In this document: piece by piece, positions 1-59,519 of the stretch
How positions within the stretch are numbered: the first letter of the stretch is position 1
Layout of the letters: every line of letters begins with the position of its first letter
Assembly: GCA_023267755.1 (NCBI GenBank)
Contig: JAHFMR010000004.1
Coordinates: forward strand, 8,535 to 72,534
Length of the DNA: 64,000 nt
From: a bacterium
GTDB lineage: Bacteria > Patescibacteriota > Minisyncoccia > Phycocordibacterales > Phycocordibacteraceae
Direction: 5' to 3'
Notes under the pieces: model-generated
What the model was told of the DNA's origin: nothing
Database searches by the model: none
Seen by the model: the letters and a program-made list of their open reading frames with translations, nothing else
Made by a program: the position numbers and the translations under genes

Positions 1-628
1 TCTCACGGTTGGCGAGCTGACTGCGCTCGCTCGAGACGTGCACCGCGAGATTGGTCGGCTTATGGAGAATACGCACCGCCGTCTCGCGCTTGTTCACGTT
101 CTGGCCGCCCGCGCCGCCTGCATTCGCGAATTGCATCTCGATATCGTCGGGAGCGAGAGTCACCTTATCGGCTGGTACGAGCGTCGGCAATACCTCCACG
201 AGCGCGAAGGAGGTCTGTCGCTTAGCGTTCGCATTAAAGGGTGACTGGCGCACGAGCCGATGCACGCCCGCTTCGTGTTTTAATCGCCCGTAGACGCCTG
301 TGCCATCAATCTCGAGCATTAAATTACGATACCCGCCGCGATCGTTCTCGTTGGCGTGGAGCTCACGCACGCGCCACCCTTTCTGCGTTGCATACCCTTC
401 ATACATCCGCCGAAGCAGGCGCGCGAAGTCTTCGGCGTCGTCGCCACCCGCCCCTGCGAGTATCGCGAGCGTGGCGTTACCGCGGTCGTGCGGGTCGCCC
501 TCGCCAACCTCCTTCAGGCTCTGATATTCCTGCACTACTCGCTGCGCCTCGTCCTTATCCGCCCAGAAATCGGGCGATGCCATCATCGCTTCGATCTCTT
601 TGAGTCGTGGATTCGCAGAATCGTCCAT
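1..628 (-). CDS. prfB: Peptide chain release factor 2 (RF2); C-terminus runs off the left window edge; start uncertain (ATG at 628..626 or read-through from upstream ORF)
   Basis: Minus-strand frame gives GGAGGQNVNKRETAVRILHK (118..59), VHRLVRQSPFNANAKRQTSF with RF2-specific SPF (265..206), KEIEAMMASPDFWADKDEAQ (601..542) and GNATLAILAGAGG (domain 2). Confidence 0.8.
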   Translation of the reverse strand, partial: MDDSANPRLKEIEAMMASPDFWADKDEAQRVVQEYQSLKEVGEGDPHDRGNATLAILAGAGGDDAEDFARLLRRMYEGYATQKGWRVRELHANENDRGGYRNLMLEIDGTGVYGRLKHEAGVHRLVRQSPFNANAKRQTSFALVEVLPTLVPADKVTLAPDDIEMQFANAGGAGGQNVNKRETAVRILHKPTNLAVHVSSERSQLANRE

Positions 629-649
629 CGCGGGGAACGATCACTGCAT

Positions 650-973
650 TCAGTGGACGGCAGGTTCCGTCAATCCCTTCGGATCAACACCAACCTCGCG
701 CAGCTTTGCGGCGAGCTCATTTTTAGCATCCATCAATAGTTCAAACTCGTTAAGTCTCTCGTCCGAGACTCCGCTTTCTCGAGCAATATTCGCCCTAAGA
801 AGCACGAGGCGCTGTTCGGCGATGAGATATTCGTTTGTCAGGGCGTCTATTTTCTCCTCTCGCTCTTCTCTCGCCCCTACACGTGCCGCCTCCTGATAAG
901 CACCCTCTACAACAGGAGCCGGAACGGGAACCTCTTCTTCAGAGGAAGTAACTCTCGGGGGGTGTTCATTCAT
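650..973 (-). CDS. Upstream ORF in the same frame as prfB, separated from it only by UGA-AUG-CAG-UGA; its tail MDAKNELAAKLREVGVDPKGLTEPAVH resembles the RF2 N-terminal helix that normally precedes the frameshift site
   Basis: ORF track; manual translation shows the prfB body continues in-frame after two TGA codons (652..650, 643..641). Confidence 0.35.
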   Translation of the reverse strand: MNEHPPRVTSSEEEVPVPAPVVEGAYQEAARVGAREEREEKIDALTNEYLIAEQRLVLLRANIARESGVSDERLNEFELLMDAKNELAAKLREVGVDPKGLTEPAVH

Positions 974-1019
974 ATGAGACCTATGATAGTACCTTCCCCT
1001 AATAACGCAATATTCCTTT

Positions 1020-1095
1020 TGGAGCCGGGGGTCGGGATTGAACCGACGACCTAGGGTTTACGATACCCTCGCTCTACCAACTGAGCTACCCCGGC
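1020..1095 (-). tRNA. tRNA-Thr (anticodon CGT), CCA encoded
   Basis: Reverse complement folds as GCCGGGG-UA-GCUC..GAGC-G-AGGGU-AUCGUAA-ACCCU-AGGUC-GUCGG-UUCAAUC-CCGAC-CCCCGGC-U-CCA. Confidence 0.85.
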
Positions 1096-1243
1096 GAGTG
1101 AGGAGATACGACTGAATGTCTTCACTCAGACGTATCCTCCGAACGAGCCAAGAGTATGGGAGTTTCCATACCCCGGCACTCTCTCTACTTCTTACCACAA
1201 GACTACGATTATATCTGCGCGCAGAACGCGCAGACCAATCGAG

Positions 1244-1316
1244 AGCCGAGAGTCGGGATTGAACCGACGACCTGCGCCTTACCATGGCGCTGCTCTACCA
1301 ACTGAGCTATCTCGGC
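1244..1316 (-). tRNA. tRNA-Thr (anticodon GGT)
   Basis: Reverse complement: GCCGAGA-UA-GCUCAGUUGGUAGAGC-A-GCGCC-AUGGUAA-GGCGC-AGGUC-GUCGG-UUCAAUC-CCGAC-UCUCGGC-U. Confidence 0.85.
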
Positions 1317-1404
1317 TTATCGCACCAACGCATAGTAGCCGAATTTTCCTATTCTTTCAATTAACATACAACACGGCCCTGTTCGGACCGTGTTGTATGA
1401 ACTG

Positions 1405-1478
1405 CGCGAGGGACGGGACTCGAACCCGCAACCTTCCGCGTGACAGGCGGATGCTCTAACCAGTTGAGCTACCCCCGC
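1405..1478 (-). tRNA. tRNA-Asp (anticodon GTC)
   Basis: Reverse complement: GCGGGGG-UA-GCUCAACUGGUUAGAGC-A-UCCGC-CUGUCAC-GCGGA-AGGUU-GCGGG-UUCGAGU-CCCGU-CCCUCGC-G. Confidence 0.85.
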
Positions 1479-1527
1479 AAAGAGGTCTCACCATCCTAGC
1501 AAATTCCCTGGAAAATGTCGTGCCGTG

Positions 1528-1601
1528 TGCTGACGGGAGGACTTGCACCTCCGACCTTAGGTTTATGAATCCTATGCTCTAACTACCTGAGCTACGCCAG
1601 C
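1528..1601 (-). tRNA. tRNA with CAT anticodon (elongator Met or Ile2-lysidine type); atypical T-loop UGCAAGU and A31:A39 mismatch
   Basis: Reverse complement: GCUGGCG-UA-GCUC-AGGUAGUUA-GAGC-A-UAGGA-UUCAUAA-ACCUA-AGGUC-GGAGG-UGCAAGU-CCUCC-CGUCAGC-A; G1-C72 paired so not initiator. Confidence 0.6.
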
Positions 1602-10122: not shown

Positions 10123-11432
10123 TCCACCGCATACAAAACCTCGAGGAGCTTGCTACTGGTAACGCCAAGCGTCTCGACGCACTCGCTATCGCCGAAGCTG
10201 GCTATGCGGCTATCAACACCGGCGAAGCATTGCGGCGCAAGATGTGGGTGGAGACGGATGGGATTCATATCGGCGGGAAGATATACCCCACCGCCGAGCG
10301 GCAAGTATATTTCGTCGGCATCGGCAAGTGCGCCTTTGACGCCGCAGAAGCTATTGAGGATATCTTCGGCGATCTCCTCATTGCTGGCATTGCCTTCGGT
10401 GTGGGCTCCCAAGAAAAAAGCCAACTCAATAAGATACAACCCTATAGCGGGACACACCCGCTCCCGAGCGAAGCGAATGTGGTGGCAACAAGGCACGTTA
10501 TGGAGTTCCTTTCGGATCGCACGGAAAACGACCTCGTCATTATGCTCATCTCGGGTGGCGGTTCGACACTGCTCTGCTCCCCCTCCGGAGTGATGACCTG
10601 TCTCGATGAGAGCACCCTCTTCAGCGAACTCACCGCACGTGGCGCAACAATTCAAGACATCAACACCGTACGCAAACACACCTCGCTCGCGCGCGGCGGT
10701 GCGCTCGCAGAAGCTGCCTACCCAGCCGAAGTTCTCGCTCTCATCGCTTCTGACGTCCCTGGGAATGACATCCCCTCTATTGCTTCTGGCCCGACCGTTC
10801 TCGATTCCTCGACCATCGCCGACGCGGAAATAATCCTCGCGAAGTACAGTGTCGCCGCCGCAGGCATCACGCTCATTGAGACGCCGAAGGACGCAAGATA
10901 TTTTGAGCGTGTCACAAACACGCTCTTCATCACCAGCCAGGATGCTCTCCTTGCGATGCAGGAAGAGGCGACACGACGCGGTTATCAGGCCACTATCGTG
11001 GCCGACTGCTTCACTGGTGAGGCACGCGAGGTGGGGCGCTCTGTTGTAGAGAAGTTGCATACAGTGAACACTGGCTCTGCTCTGCTCTACGCGGGTGAAA
11101 GCACTGTTATGATTAACGGTGACGGCAAGGGTTCCTCGACTCCGCTCGGGGCAGGCGGGCGCAATCAGGAGATGTCGCTCGCCGCGCTTAGCGACATTCG
11201 CGAGGGAGAGCTTCTTCTCCCCTTTGCCTCCGACGGGCGCGATAACACCGACCACGCGGGCGCGATTGCCGATAGTACGACGCTCGCTCACGCGCACGAA
11301 CAAAACCTCGCCCCCGAAGATTATCTCGCCACCCATCGCTCCTACGACTTCTTTACAACAACGCGCGATGCCCTCTTAACGGGGTATACTGGATCTAATG
11401 TATCTGACCTTATTATCGCCCTTAAGAAATAA
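10119..11432 (+). CDS. Glycerate 2-kinase (MOFRL family; hydroxypyruvate reductase-associated GckA/TtuD type)
   Basis: DLVIMLISGGGSTLLCSP and C-terminal MOFRL-like region; 437 aa. Confidence 0.7.
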   Translation: MIHRIQNLEELATGNAKRLDALAIAEAGYAAINTGEALRRKMWVETDGIHIGGKIYPTAERQVYFVGIGKCAFDAAEAIEDIFGDLLIAGIAFGVGSQEKSQLNKIQPYSGTHPLPSEANVVATRHVMEFLSDRTENDLVIMLISGGGSTLLCSPSGVMTCLDESTLFSELTARGATIQDINTVRKHTSLARGGALAEAAYPAEVLALIASDVPGNDIPSIASGPTVLDSSTIADAEIILAKYSVAAAGITLIETPKDARYFERVTNTLFITSQDALLAMQEEATRRGYQATIVADCFTGEAREVGRSVVEKLHTVNTGSALLYAGESTVMINGDGKGSSTPLGAGGRNQEMSLAALSDIREGELLLPFASDGRDNTDHAGAIADSTTLAHAHEQNLAPEDYLATHRSYDFFTTTRDALLTGYTGSNVSDLIIALKK

Positions 11433-21250: not shown

Positions 21251-22030
21251 CTAGCAGGCGATGTTCTGATCAATAGCAGTCGAGCTCGCCTCGTACTGCA
21301 CAATCCAGATTGGACTTCCTGTGATGAAGCTCTTGCCGGTCACGCACGCATTAATCGCGCCTACCTGGCTCTTGACCCCCACTGGTAGCCAGACCGGGAT
21401 GAGCACATCTTGTCCTGCTATCTTCTGCACGGGGATGAAACCGCTTCCGGCAATCGTCCGCCACATACGCGGCATCGAGTAGATGCCGACGCGGAGCCCC
21501 TTTGTATTCAGATAATCAATCGCGCCTTGAATTGTCGCGGCGTTTACCGCCGTATCCTTCGACCAGCTATTGGCCTCTTCGATATCGAGCCACCAGAGCG
21601 CCGACTGCACCCCCTTCTCTAGCGCGTAGCGGTAGGAGTGTTCTGCCGCCTGATAGCCGTAGTTGTAGCCCTGACACGCGGTGGGCTCTGCGCCCGCCTT
21701 CGTACCACTGCACGCCTTCGGACTGCCCACGTGCCCTTCTACCGTGCTCCCATAGGGCGCATTCAAATTCATATACACGGTCGCGGCGGTGTGCGAGGCA
21801 AACTTCGTCCACGCATAGCCGGCTGAGAGCCGTTTATTATCGACGAACGCCTTCCCTCCGGTGACGCCCACAATCGCGAAGCCAAACGACTCCGCGGGGA
21901 AATAACGCGTGCTGAAGGTTACGTCAAAGCCGAGATTGCTCGGCACATACGGACTCCCCACCGCCGCCACAGCGAGTGCGGGCAATGCCGTAAAAAGAAC
22001 TCCGAGTGCCGCGAAAATCACTTTCCTCAT
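21251..22030 (-). CDS. Secreted glycoside hydrolase family 25-like muramidase
   Basis: Signal peptide; GFDVT, FAIVGVTGGKAFVD, WWLDIEE and PIWIVQYE resemble the GH25 motifs GIDVS/FAIIKATEG/WLDVE/WIAQY. Confidence 0.5.
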   Translation of the reverse strand: MRKVIFAALGVLFTALPALAVAAVGSPYVPSNLGFDVTFSTRYFPAESFGFAIVGVTGGKAFVDNKRLSAGYAWTKFASHTAATVYMNLNAPYGSTVEGHVGSPKACSGTKAGAEPTACQGYNYGYQAAEHSYRYALEKGVQSALWWLDIEEANSWSKDTAVNAATIQGAIDYLNTKGLRVGIYSMPRMWRTIAGSGFIPVQKIAGQDVLIPVWLPVGVKSQVGAINACVTGKSFITGSPIWIVQYEASSTAIDQNIAC

Positions 22031-22045
22031 TACTCAAGTATACCT

Positions 22046-24290: not shown

Positions 24291-24448
24291 GCAAAAGCCG
24301 CCCATAAGGGCGGCTTTTGCGTACGTGATGCACTACAAGAGTACTTCTCGTTTTCTAACTCGCTTCGCTCCTAAGAAAACAATGTCGCCGGGCGGTACTG
24401 TGCTGACCCTGATGGGGGAAGGTACTGGTTCCTGGCGTCACAACCGTG
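24291..24448. repeat. Repeat copy C (terminator hairpin 24291..24320 plus the 60-nt block shared with B), immediately 3' of the intron-containing tRNA
   Basis: gcaaaagccgccc-ataa-gggcggcttttgc; block ctgatgggggaaggtactggttcctggcgtcacaaccgtgttgc. Confidence 0.6.
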
Positions 24449-24769
24449 TTGCGGGGGCCGGAATCGAACCGGCGTCTGGAGGTTCTTCTGTACCTACTGT
24501 TTCCAGCAGGAATGGACTATCCCATAATCCTATAAGGATTCTCCCATTATAGTCTCTGAACCTTTCCTCCGCCTCAGGCGGAAGACTTGGCTGCTGATTG
24601 CCGAATCTTCTCGTTTTTCACGCATTCGCGCCCACCCTTTCGAGTCACGTTGTAGCATGAGAAGCTCTCACGGTATTCCAGCAATTTAGAGAGTTTTTCC
24701 ACTACCCGTTACCGGATAGGGTCACGTTATTCACATGAGCCTCCCGAGGTACCTCTCCTCTACCCCGCT
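24449..24769 (-). tRNA. Initiator-like tRNA-Met (anticodon CAT) interrupted by a group I intron; exons 24769..24735 and 24484..24449
   Basis: Spliced: AGCGGGG-UA-GAGG-AGAGGUA-CCUC-G-GGAGG-CUCAU|AA-CCUCC-AGAC-GCCGG-UUCGAUU-CCGGC-CCCCGCA-A; 3' half identical to E. coli tRNA-fMet (CCGGCCCCCGCAA), 1:72 mismatch. Confidence 0.75.
24485..24734 (-). ncRNA. Group I self-splicing intron (~250 nt, no ORF) in the tRNA anticodon loop after U36
   Basis: Exon ends in U, intron ends in G; IGS GUGA pairs with UCAU; core-like CUAAAUUGCUGG...CGAAAGGGUGGG (J3/4-P4) and CAGAGACUAUAAUGGGAG (J6/7-P7) motifs. Confidence 0.65.
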
Positions 24770-24837: not shown

Positions 24838-25410
24838 TCAAATCACCTTGAACTCTCTGAAGACCGCTTCGTAGCGCGCGATGGTGCGCTGCGCGAGCGT
24901 CTCGGAGAGGTCGAAGGCGGAGCCGTCGTGCGCGATCCGGTTGCGCACTTTGTGTGCCTCCCACGCGTCGTTCAGACTGCCGAATGTGGCGTTATCAGCG
25001 GTCTTCAACTTCTCGGCGACACCCTCGCCCACATACCCCTGCTGCACGAGCACATCGTCGAGCATAATATCCGCCTCGATAATAGCGTCGCGCCACTCGC
25101 TCGAGGTCGTCCCCGCCGCGAGCGTCTTGATGTGTTGCCAGCGTGGGTGCTCATCGTCGAGGGAAGCGGCGACTGTAAGCGGTGTGGAGTAGAACTCTTC
25201 TTCGCGGTGTCGGAGCTCGAAGAGGCGCACTGTGCAATACACAATAATGAAGAGTGCTACCACCGAAACCGTGTAGCCAATACCGACAATCCAGAGCCAG
25301 AGGTGCGAGAGAAAGGCTTCAATCCCACTTAGCGAGCCATAGCACGCACCGTGCAAGCAGTCGTAGAGGAGACGGAAGAAGTATTCGGTATTCGTCTGCG
25401 TAGAAGACAT
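24838..25410 (-). CDS. Membrane-anchored HEPN-domain (DUF4145-like) protein
   Basis: N-terminal TM helices; C-terminal AHKVRNRIAHDG contains an Rx4H HEPN motif. Confidence 0.45.
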   Translation of the reverse strand: MSSTQTNTEYFFRLLYDCLHGACYGSLSGIEAFLSHLWLWIVGIGYTVSVVALFIIVYCTVRLFELRHREEEFYSTPLTVAASLDDEHPRWQHIKTLAAGTTSSEWRDAIIEADIMLDDVLVQQGYVGEGVAEKLKTADNATFGSLNDAWEAHKVRNRIAHDGSAFDLSETLAQRTIARYEAVFREFKVI

Positions 25411-25433
25411 CCTCTCTAGTATAGACGAAAAAA

Positions 25434-35841: not shown

Positions 35842-36249
35842 CTAGCGAGTGGCGCCGGCAGCAGGCGCATTTGATTCGATGGTGCGAATAGTTTCGGCGA
35901 ACACTTCAGACGGGATAGCTGACGCTTTTATGATGTATCCATCTGCAAGGAGTTTTTTCGCCTTCTCAAGGTCTGAATCCTGGCCCTGATTTGAGAGAAT
36001 CACTATCTTTGAACCTTGGACGAGGTTTTCTTTCCGGATTGCCTCAAGCGCGCCAAAACCGCCGATACCCGGCATAATGAGGTCGAGAAGAATGACATCG
36101 GGTGCTTTTGTATCTGCTTTGTGAAGCGCGGCAAGAAGGTCTTCCCCGCTATTGAACACGCTCACATCGTGTCCAGCCGTGCGGAACTTCACTGCGTACA
36201 AATCCACAAGAAATCTATCGTCGTCAACTAGGAAAATACGATATGCCAT
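35842..36249 (-). CDS. Single-domain response regulator (CheY-like receiver) embedded in pilus cluster
   Basis: IFLVDDD...VILLDLIMPGIGGFGALEAI receiver motifs. Confidence 0.8.
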   Translation of the reverse strand: MAYRIFLVDDDRFLVDLYAVKFRTAGHDVSVFNSGEDLLAALHKADTKAPDVILLDLIMPGIGGFGALEAIRKENLVQGSKIVILSNQGQDSDLEKAKKLLADGYIIKASAIPSEVFAETIRTIESNAPAAGATR

Positions 36250-36276
36250 TACGATAAGTATACCCCATTACAGGAG

Positions 36277-39015: not shown

Positions 39016-39590
39016 GGTATGAAAGCGACGACCTTTGGGTCGAGTGCCGCGGAAAGCACGAAAGAGACTGAACTATCTTTATTTACTACGAGATTCGAAA
39101 AAATGGCATCTTTTATACGGCCGTCGTTCGCAGCCGCGGCAGATAGCGCCGCGAGCGCGTTGAAACTCCTCGCCACACCGGTGCCATCGATCTTCACCTT
39201 CTTTGCCGCGTCGAGCGACAGGTGAAGAGATGAGAGGCGTACGCTTGTTGGTAGAAGTGCCTCAATAACGGCAAAGAACCCGGAGAGCGCGATATGGCTT
39301 GAAAGGAGTGCTGTGCTTGAGTTGAGGCGATTGCGCAGTTGCACGAACCCTTCGACCGTTGCGGGATCGATCTTCGCATTCGCTTCCTTCAAGGCCTCCT
39401 CCTTAGTGACCTGCATTCCGGAGAGAACACGGTCATAGCCAAAAAGTCCGAGTGCGAGCACAAAAACAACGCACAGAACAGTGTAAGCAAACAGCGCATA
39501 TCCACCGGTAAACTCAAAACGCGATTGTTGCGCGGCCGCAGATGCCGAACGCGGTACGAATGAAGTCGGTATCGTTGGGGGAATGTCCAT
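39012..39590 (-). CDS. pilN: Pilus assembly protein PilN-like
   Basis: Short cytoplasmic N-terminus, TM, periplasmic coiled coil; synteny. Confidence 0.55.
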   Translation of the reverse strand: MDIPPTIPTSFVPRSASAAAQQSRFEFTGGYALFAYTVLCVVFVLALGLFGYDRVLSGMQVTKEEALKEANAKIDPATVEGFVQLRNRLNSSTALLSSHIALSGFFAVIEALLPTSVRLSSLHLSLDAAKKVKIDGTGVARSFNALAALSAAAANDGRIKDAIFSNLVVNKDSSVSFVLSAALDPKVVAFIP

Positions 39591-39655
39591 TTCCCTTCAG
39601 TATACGGCACTCACGCGCCTCTCTTAGACAACGTCTGTGCAAAACATCTTGCTTT

Positions 39656-58532: not shown

Positions 58533-59519
58533 TTGAATATACACGGCTTCGGAAATGACACTTCTGTGGATAGTCTTCCGGCGTATATACTAGGCGATAT
58601 GTCCACCCGCCTCAGCCGTGCTCTCGTTGCACTCGTCTTCGCGCTCGCCGCGGGCGGCGCGGGGTATACACTCGGAAACGATAGTGCTCCCAGACAGGTC
58701 GCAAGTGTCGCGATACCAGTACAGACCGTCACTGTGCCACTTACTGGCACTACTCGTGTCATATACAGTCTTGATCAGAAACGTAATGATAAAGAGCTTA
58801 TTGCGCTCATCGACGCGGCGAAGACGCATATCTATTTTGCTATCTACGAATTCACACTCAAGGATGTCGCCGATGCACTCGTGGCGGCCAAGAAACGCGG
58901 TGTCGAGGTCCGCGGGCTCGTCGACGCCGGTGAGAGTGCTAAGAGCTACGATAAGCCGATTATGAACGAGCTTGCTACTGCCGGTATTCCTATCGAAACA
59001 CAGAAGCACGCGAGTGGTAATGGCATTATGCATATCAAGCTTCTCGTCACCGACTCGGCGTATGCACTCGGAAGCTACAACTGGACCAGCTCCGCGACAA
59101 ACGTGAACGATGAGATTCTCGAAATAGGCACCGACCCAGGTCTCCGGCAGGCATATGAGAATATCCTGACGAGACTACTCGATGCCTACAAGGGCAACAG
59201 CGTGGCCGCGGGAGCGGCCACGAATATTTCTATCGGCACTATCGATTATACTGAAGCCGCTAAACACATCGGCGCTACCGCGAGCGTGCGCGGCACGCTC
59301 GTCGAGGCCTATACCTCGGCGAGCGGAACGGTCTTCCTCGATTTCTGTAAGAGCTACAAGACCTGCCCTTTCTCGGGTGTCATCTTCGCTGACGATGTAA
59401 AAGCATTTGGCGACCTCTCTTCCCTCGCCGGCAAGACTATCACCCTCACCGGCTCCATCTCCTCCTATCAAGGTAAAGCCGAGATCGTCCTCTCCGACCC
59501 GAGCCAGCTCACAAAATAG
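58533..59519 (+). CDS. Membrane-anchored phospholipase D-like (HKD) nuclease-family protein
   Basis: HKD motif MHIKLLVTDSAYALGSYNWT; N-terminal TM. Confidence 0.6.
   Translation: MNIHGFGNDTSVDSLPAYILGDMSTRLSRALVALVFALAAGGAGYTLGNDSAPRQVASVAIPVQTVTVPLTGTTRVIYSLDQKRNDKELIALIDAAKTHIYFAIYEFTLKDVADALVAAKKRGVEVRGLVDAGESAKSYDKPIMNELATAGIPIETQKHASGNGIMHIKLLVTDSAYALGSYNWTSSATNVNDEILEIGTDPGLRQAYENILTRLLDAYKGNSVAAGAATNISIGTIDYTEAAKHIGATASVRGTLVEAYTSASGTVFLDFCKSYKTCPFSGVIFADDVKAFGDLSSLAGKTITLTGSISSYQGKAEIVLSDPSQLTK
59479..59519. repeat. Left copy of 41-bp imperfect direct repeat flanking the mazF-like cassette (right copy 60027..60067)
   Basis: aaagccgagatcgtcctctccga[ct]ccgag[ct]cag[ct]t[cg]ac, 37/41 identical. 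Confidence 0.8.

Follow-up and report, generated by a model that had tools for sequence, protein, structure and literature searches.

Conserved in-frame UGA codons between a small gene and the short RF2 gene of Paceibacteria suggest a possible new variant of RF2 self-sensing

The DNA analysed here is a window of 64,000 nucleotides from a bacterium of the Patescibacteriota (contig JAHFMR010000004.1 of assembly GCA_023267755.1, positions 8,535 to 72,534 of the forward strand), in which prfB, the gene for release factor 2 (RF2), lies on the minus strand and is preceded in the same frame by a small open reading frame (ORF) of 107 codons. The small ORF ends in UGA, and in every relative in which we found a homologue the gene is again in frame with prfB, with UGA as its stop wherever DNA could be read. 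A short RF2 without a frameshift site and with its own start, next to a small hypothetical gene, is ordinary; the conserved in-frame UGA or UGA-UGA junction is unusual, and the locus may be a possible new variant of RF2 self-sensing. UGA is read by RF2 only, and the autoregulation of prfB through a +1 frameshift is the textbook example of recoding. A survey of more than 12,000 genomes (2025) describes only the presence or loss of the prfB frameshift (PMC12421855); bacteria lacking it are treated in current surveys as simply unregulated, and a text search of the survey found no mention of Patescibacteria or of read-through. In full-text searches of the literature we found neither an ORF ending in UGA ahead of prfB described nor the short RF2 of Patescibacteria.

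Results

The small ORF and prfB share one frame with two UGA codons between them

Direct reading and translation of the minus strand give, in a single frame, the 107-codon ORF, TGA, ATG CAG, TGA, 12 nt and the RF2 ORF. Starting from ATG 973 the small ORF ends in GCC GTC CAC and is followed by TGA at 652..650, ATG CAG at 649..644, TGA at 643..641, TCG TTC CCC GCG at 640..629 and ATG 628, which continues with GAC GAT, with 21 bases between the small-ORF stop and the prfB ATG (Table 1). The RF2 motifs PDFW, SPF and GGQ are located at 574..563, 244..236 and 109..101, respectively, and prfB leaves the window at base 1. The initial annotation of this stretch had described the upstream ORF and the RF2 body as lying in one frame interrupted by two UGAs, with the other frames closed and no canonical +1 frameshift site in prfB. 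All of this was borne out: after the first TGA the other two frames stop after 22 and 31 codons, and CTTTGA is absent from the minus strand of 500..1000.

The same annotation had allowed for an error in the locus. That sequencing or assembly produced the stops, or that prfB is a pseudogene, has a negligible probability, and no point in support of either was found. An independent assembly of a diverged population from another sample (L001) carries 18 substitutions inside the ORF and an identical junction, a further contig of 15.5 kb in ENA encodes the same ORF protein without a difference and has its next gene call at an offset of 22 nt, the same design is seen in 10 other lineages, and RF2 is intact and highly conserved.

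Table 1. Features of the prfB locus and TATACT start-site boxes in the window
Feature	Position	Strand	Basis or remark
tRNA-Thr(CGU)	1020..1095	-	last of tRNA cluster; ARAGORN and Rfam
-10-like box (TACTAT / TATCAT)	983..991	-	9-12 nt before small-ORF ATG; read from sequence; putative promoter of a leaderless or near-leaderless transcript
Small protein gene, 107 codons	653..973 (TGA at 652..650)	-	ORF list, translation, dN/dS, AlphaFold2, homologues
First UGA, stop of the small ORF, next base A	650..652	-	direct reading
AUG-CAG two-codon mini-ORF between both UGAs	644..649	-	direct reading
Second in-frame UGA, 12 nt before prfB ATG	641..643	-	where most relatives place the first UGA
12-nt spacer TCGTTCCCCGCG, without Shine-Dalgarno sequence and without -10 box	629..640	-	direct reading and promoter scan
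prfB, short RF2 form (292 aa), first 209 codons in window	1..628, start ATG 628	-	Pfam PCRF and RF-1, TIGR00020
TATACT-N5-8-ATG	11385-11400	+	
TATACT-N5-8-ATG	22028-22042	-	
TATACT-N5-8-ATG	25408-25423	-	
TATACT-N5-8-ATG	36247-36262	-	
TATACT-N5-8-ATG	39588-39604	-	
TATACT-N5-8-ATG	58586-58601	+	

The UGA stop and the shared frame are conserved among relatives

The junction was compared in 11 distinct variants with DNA (Table 2) and in a twelfth contig without DNA, for which only the gap could be used. The small-ORF stop is TGA in 11 of 11 variants, the small ORF is in frame with prfB in all 12 cases, and the prfB ATG is invariant. The gap between stop and ATG is 12 nt in eight variants, 15 nt in one and 21 nt in two, as well as in the contig without DNA. 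This comparison had been proposed in the initial annotation as a check on the in-frame UGAs, and it came out in their favor, as the first UGA and the shared frame are present in every family member found and the tandem in about half. A TGA-N6-TGA arrangement is present in 6/11 variants, at -24/-15 relative to the ATG in the window and at -15/-6 in L082, L083, L165, L175 and L009, so that the second TGA of the window occupies the position of the first TGA of the others, 12 nt before the ATG. Because it is found in two registers, the tandem TGA probably has more than one origin. An A follows the first TGA in 9/11 variants, and the codons flanking the conserved TGA have changed several times among the lineages. 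With RNAalifold the junction showed neither base pairs nor covariation, and the junction of the window folds with a z-score of -1.15.

Table 2. Junctions between the small ORF and prfB, from the last small-ORF codon to the prfB ATG
Variant	Junction
Window / L001	CAC TGA ATG CAG TGA TCG TTC CCC GCG ATG
L176	CAT TGA ACC AGG TGG ATG GTC TCT ACA ATG
L082 group	CAG TGA ACA GTG TGA ACA ATG
L083	CAG TGA ACA GAG TGA ACA ATG
L165	CAA TGA ACG ATG TGA ACA ATG
L175	CAG TGA ACC GTG TGA ACA ATG
L172	CAG TGA GCA TTG CGT ACA ATG
L009	CAG TGA ATT CAG TGA CTC ATG
L087	GAG TGA ACG CCG CGA ACG ATG
L002	CAG TGA TGT TGG TGC GTC ATG
L086 group	AAT TGA ACC TTG CTC GTC ACG ATG

Several of the tandem junctions hold a minimal ORF or a start-stop between the two UGAs, namely AUG-CAG-UGA in the window (641-649, minus strand), AUG-UGA in L165 (3280-3291) and GUG-UGA in L082 (589-600) and L175 (400-411). 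Reinitiating ribosomes could be able to engage such sites.

The UGA is uncommon as a stop and probably under selection

TGA terminates 18 of the 57 long ORFs of the window (32 %), 20 of the 82 ORFs in the loci of the clade (24 %) and 9 of 39 upstream genes at short same-strand junctions, and none of the 18 TGA-ending ORFs of the window has a second TGA three codons on. In the lineages that carry the small ORF the stops of the neighboring genes turn over, prfB using TAA and TAG, ftsE using TGA, TAA and TAG, and ftsX using TAG and TGA. As TGA is an uncommon stop here, the stops of the neighbors turn over and the flanking codons have changed, the UGA of the small ORF is probably held in place by selection. 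Frame statistics taken from the junctions of neighboring genes were discarded, being biased by the longest-ORF start rule.

The main rival to a regulatory role of this UGA is an ordinary operon junction, in which an accessory gene was inserted between tRNA-Thr and prfB and became translationally coupled to it, with the UGAs and the frame inherited or kept by local reinitiation needs and with no sensing of RF2. We regard this as a serious possibility, although not a probable one. It would suit the narrowness of the small-ORF family, which is monophyletic in origin, and the 12-nt gap of most members, which fixes the frame automatically, as well as the loss of the second UGA in 4-5 variants, which makes the tandem nonessential. 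It fits less well with a TGA kept in 11/11 variants while the stops of prfB, ftsE and ftsX turn over and the synonymous sites of the ORF are saturated (synonymous divergence, dS, above 1), and of 15 unrelated genes that immediately precede prfB only two have TGA as their stop. The two registers of the tandem, suggesting repeated origin, and the fact that both changes in gap length are multiples of three also argue against it.

The RF2 of Paceibacteria is short and starts behind the classical frameshift site

The RF2 fragment matches the Pfam families PCRF (PF03462) at 1.7e-41 and RF-1 (PF00472) at 6.4e-18, and its best NCBIfam model is TIGR00020 at 2e-66, where the score of 224, below the cut-off of 370, refers to the 209-residue fragment present in the window. 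Both domains together with the SPF and GGQ motifs identify the protein as an RF2. A database search gave thousands of homologues, nearly all of 289-294 aa and covering the query from residue 1, that are labeled Paceibacteria, Parcubacteria, Kaiserbacteria or Patescibacteria, including a full-length protein of 292 aa (P0002) that is 100 % identical to the RF2 of the window. All 80 species loci examined share the start of the window's RF2, with the start codon ~16-20 residues before PDFW and usually right behind an in-frame stop. When the protein is aligned to solved RF2 structures, query residues 4-40 fall on chain residues 28-64 and residues 41-290 on 116-364, and chain residues 1-27 and 65-115 are skipped, so that a full-length domain 1 (~110 residues) is not present. 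Judged from this alignment, the RF2 of Paceibacteria lacks canonical residues ~1-24 (about 24) and 65-115 (about 51), both part of domain 1 and together most of its helical bundle, and its N-terminus falls immediately behind the classical frameshift site of canonical RF2. The helical bundle of domain 1 contacts RF3 and the ribosomal stalk in E. coli. The lack of a frameshift and the shortened N-terminus belong to the lineage and are not peculiar to this locus, since thousands of relatives of ~290 aa share the start, and distant full-length RF2 genes retrieved by the same scans carry CTTTGA at that place. In the small-ORF lineages L082, L083, L002, L086, L009, L087 and L165 the prfB stop is TAA or TAG in 7/7 and TGA in 0/7, and finishing RF2 does thus not require RF2.

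The initial annotation had taken the upstream ORF for the N-terminal part of RF2, joined to the body by read-through, and had named as an alternative an RF2 without the N-terminal helix whose start is ATG 628. The alternative is correct and is the norm for the whole lineage. We consider it very probable that there are two separate genes, with RF2 starting at ATG 628. A split prfB, whose N-terminal domain is encoded upstream and which gives functional RF2 only by read-through of both in-frame UGAs, is a highly improbable explanation that the comparative data have already largely refuted. The shared frame of the ORFs and the conservation of the UGAs in relatives would agree with it, but ATG 628 is invariant and is the start of the ~290-aa RF2 in thousands of relatives without the upstream ORF, which leaves no need for obligatory read-through, and read-through of two stops would yield too little of an essential factor. 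Nor does the upstream ORF show detectable homology to the RF2 N-terminus: a comparison by hhalign with a profile of canonical domain 1, rebuilt from five loci (four containing the frameshift and one without it), gave a probability of 0.5 % and a P of 0.11, and the idea that the small ORF is the lost domain 1 was rejected on this basis.

The small ORF is an independent gene of a narrow family

The product of the small ORF in the window has no Pfam or NCBIfam match, members of its family give only scattered coiled-coil matches, and comparison with the PDB sequences gave nothing below an E of 0.2. AlphaFold2 predicts a helical hairpin with a disordered N-terminus and helices at residues 24-65 and 71-93 (pLDDT 80). 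The ratio of nonsynonymous to synonymous divergence (dN/dS) is 0.18 against L001 and 0.06-0.35 across nine family pairs, with dS often above 1. These low ratios indicate that the small ORF is an independent gene that is translated and constrained as a protein by purifying selection.

Three relatives of the small ORF came out of an exhaustive phmmer search against 1.8 billion representative proteins; the spacers between tRNA and prfB in relatives held further, very divergent members (17-27 % identity), and a profile search, with matches from 2e-24 to 5e-5, added more. The members (alignment A1) are ~80-125 aa long and share an N-terminal PS-x-AAR-x-x-A-x-E, a coiled-coil hairpin and a C-terminal G-x-x-P ... 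(V/I)(Q/H), and the ORF of the window has these traits as well as the family's place between tRNA-Thr(CGU) and prfB. The gene order is small ORF, prfB, ftsE, ftsX and pyrG wherever it is readable. As far as these searches reach, the family is narrow and confined to one sub-clade, and it is always found between tRNA-Thr(CGU) and prfB. In the RF2 tree the ORF-bearing lineages are spread over the whole clade and interspersed with lineages without the ORF.

A different function was considered for the small protein, namely that it acts in trans as a partner of the short RF2, for instance replacing the missing domain-1 helices at the stalk, with the UGA coupling serving a fixed ratio or co-assembly and not feedback. 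Gene calls place the small ORF upstream of prfB in all contigs recovered, a strict linkage that would fit a partner, as would the purifying selection on the protein and the predicted hairpin, which is about the size of the missing helices. Nevertheless, we judge this to be quite unlikely, as the protein has no sequence or profile similarity to RF2 domain 1, a Foldseek search of the PDB with the model gave generic helical hairpins only (E above 0.4), most organisms with the same short RF2 do without the small protein, and the need for a UGA stop would be left unexplained.

prfB of ORF-bearing lineages lacks a Shine-Dalgarno sequence and a -10 box

A tRNA cluster of Met(CAU), Asp(GUC), Thr(GGU) and Thr(CGU) precedes prfB in the window (1020-1601, minus strand) and is syntenic across much of Paceibacteria. 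At least 16 of the 80 species loci have only 0-10 nt between the end of tRNA-Thr and the prfB ATG, and in two genomes whose RF2 is 86 % identical to that of the window there is no small ORF and tRNA-Thr ends 2 nt before the prfB ATG. The gap between tRNA-Thr(CGU) and prfB is 0 in L004, L030, L039, L042 and L055, 1 nt in L017, L029 and L032, 2 nt in L177 and L178, and 3 nt in L088 and L053. By analogy with the "tRNA punctuation" of mitochondria, processing of the tRNA 3' end would release a leaderless prfB mRNA from such loci. Other close relatives without the ORF have TTGCTATACT-N6-7-ATG(prfB), an extended -10 box placed for a leaderless mRNA. The prfB ATG in this lineage would thus typically be the first codon of a leaderless mRNA, or of one freed by tRNA processing.

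The -10 box found before prfB in relatives without the ORF has been lost in the lineages with the small ORF. Neither a Shine-Dalgarno (SD) sequence nor a -10 box was found for prfB in the window, and no internal promoter or terminator was found between the small ORF and prfB. Weak pairing of GUGA to the 16S tail was considered as a ribosome site for prfB and was judged badly spaced. The homologous small ORFs have a -10 box (TACACT, TACAAT, TAGGAT or TAAGAT) 6-8 nt before their ATG; the -10-like box of the window was not called by a strict two-hexamer scan. In the window TATACT-N5-8-ATG occurs 6 times against 0.53 expected (Table 1), and SD motifs of the GGAG type are rare genome-wide. These motif counts suggest that leaderless mRNAs predominate in this genome.

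Insertions have a hotspot in the spacer that separates tRNA-Thr(CGU) from prfB, where one finds, depending on the lineage, a membrane protein of 227-230 aa, a histidine kinase together with a response regulator, or further genes that are unrelated (L005 2278-2970, L006 391-1080, L031 2146-2829, L007 418-2576 and others). That many unrelated genes use this site in general, and that close relatives lack the small ORF, would be expected of the ordinary operon junction described above, under which the GUGA could also serve local reinitiation by pairing weakly with the 16S 3' end.

Elsewhere in the window, a group I intron (Rfam RF00028, 83.9 bits) is located at 24493-24746 in the anticodon loop of a CAU tRNA (24448-24769, minus strand), which ARAGORN reports as tRNA-Met with a 250-nt intron and which has a TATACT box just upstream.

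Discussion

The junction described here would allow RF2 to sense its own level in the following manner. Transcription would begin at the ATG of the small ORF or a few bases ahead of it and yield a single leaderless or near-leaderless mRNA for the small ORF and prfB, and the ribosomes translating prfB would be those that have terminated at the small-ORF UGA and reinitiate 12-21 nt downstream. Reinitiation is suggested because prfB has neither an SD sequence nor a -10 box of its own; together with the short distance from stop to start and the -10 box at the small ORF, this is the anatomy expected of coupled genes, and it points to a shared transcript. Since the stop is a UGA and the downstream gene encodes RF2, the junction is in a good position to serve as a readout of RF2 activity. 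With plenty of RF2, ribosomes would terminate at the UGA and begin anew at the prfB AUG. When RF2 is scarce, they would dwell on UGA-A and could continue in frame into prfB by read-through, which would produce RF2 with an N-terminal extension. The frame does continue open into the prfB coding region in the window and in all 11 variants, and the predicted peptide across the junction is ...GLTEPAVH-W-MQ-W-SFPAMDDSANPR, with Trp, Cys or Arg at the UGA positions. Read-through would then be an RF2-independent route to RF2 and would prevent a collapse where the synthesis of RF2 needs RF2, and a tandem UGA would make this route steeply dependent on RF2. We put the chance that the junction regulates RF2 through this whole chain of events at slightly less than even. 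That the read-through fusion protein, an RF2 with an N-terminal extension of ~115 residues, is made and functional appears unlikely, which counts against the proposal.

Several further points weigh against self-sensing. We infer both the regulation and the read-through from comparative evidence only. The family is small, perhaps 6 deep lineages with one ancestor, and some of the conservation of UGA and frame could be due to inheritance. The constraint on the frame has been put to the test by two indels only (12 to 15 and 12 to 21), for which the chance expectation is ~1 in 9. Most Paceibacteria, very close relatives included, manage without the small ORF, and the junction showed neither a conserved RNA structure nor a stimulatory element. 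Simple termination and reinitiation ties prfB positively to RF2 and is alone not homeostatic. Finally, a tandem stop is more commonly taken as a guard against read-through than as a device for it.

Comparison with known systems shows where the proposed self-sensing would be related to them and where it would differ. As in the prfB +1 frameshift of E. coli (CUU UGA C with an SD-like element), an RF2-only UGA lies just before the RF2 body, so that termination competes with an RF2-independent event, and the short RF2 begins at the residue following the classical shift site. In contrast to that system, there is no slippery CUU-U and no SD-like AGGGGG stimulator in 629..700, the RF2 body is in frame 0 and not +1, prfB keeps its own ATG, and the upstream ORF, with its 107 codons, is unrelated to the first 25 residues of RF2 and encodes a conserved protein of its own. 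UGA read-through, as in the A1 protein of Qbeta or at leaky UGA-A, shares the in-frame continuation past a UGA that is followed by A in most variants. UGA followed by A or C is reportedly a weak, read-through-prone context in E. coli, a view attributed to Engelberg-Kulka in 1981 and Poole et al. in 1995. Unlike in those cases, read-through is here a prediction from the sequence and has no stimulatory structure that we could find, and the two UGAs in half of the variants would make it very rare at normal RF2. The coupling of termination and reinitiation, by 70S scanning and in operons without SD sequences, resembles the junction in the 12-21 nt between stop and start, the lack of an SD sequence and promoter for prfB, and the leaderless architecture of the genome; ordinary coupling needs no particular stop, whereas here it is always the RF2-specific UGA with RF2 downstream.

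TnaC-UGA leader peptides also end in UGA, so that termination could control expression downstream, and the C-terminal residues of the small ORF are biased toward hydrophobic-Gln/His. In contrast to an arrest peptide, the small ORF comprises ~100 codons and is conserved throughout as a protein with a predicted helical fold, and we know of no ligand or arrest motif for it. With respect to RF2 itself, the loss of about 75 residues of the N-terminal helical domain recalls the class-I factors with reduced domain 1 (PrfH, ArfB/ICT1 and engineered deletions of RF1 and RF2), from which the Paceibacteria protein differs in that it keeps SPF, GGQ and domains 2-4 and is a regular RF2, not a rescue factor.

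A broader account is that a sub-clade of Paceibacteria lost the RF2 segment with the frameshift site and rebuilt autoregulation through a leaderless upstream gene that ends in one or two UGA codons, 12 nt ahead of the prfB AUG and in its frame, with RF2 setting the balance between termination-reinitiation and read-through. We offer this only tentatively, as it is rather doubtful that the scenario holds in full. Even in the case that there is no regulation, the annotation of such loci is corrected to two genes with a short RF2 and no frameshift. If the proposal is true, these bacteria, which belong to a group with reduced ribosomes, leaderless mRNAs and a shortened RF2, would have a second, independently evolved way for RF2 to measure itself, an alternative to the +1 frameshift.

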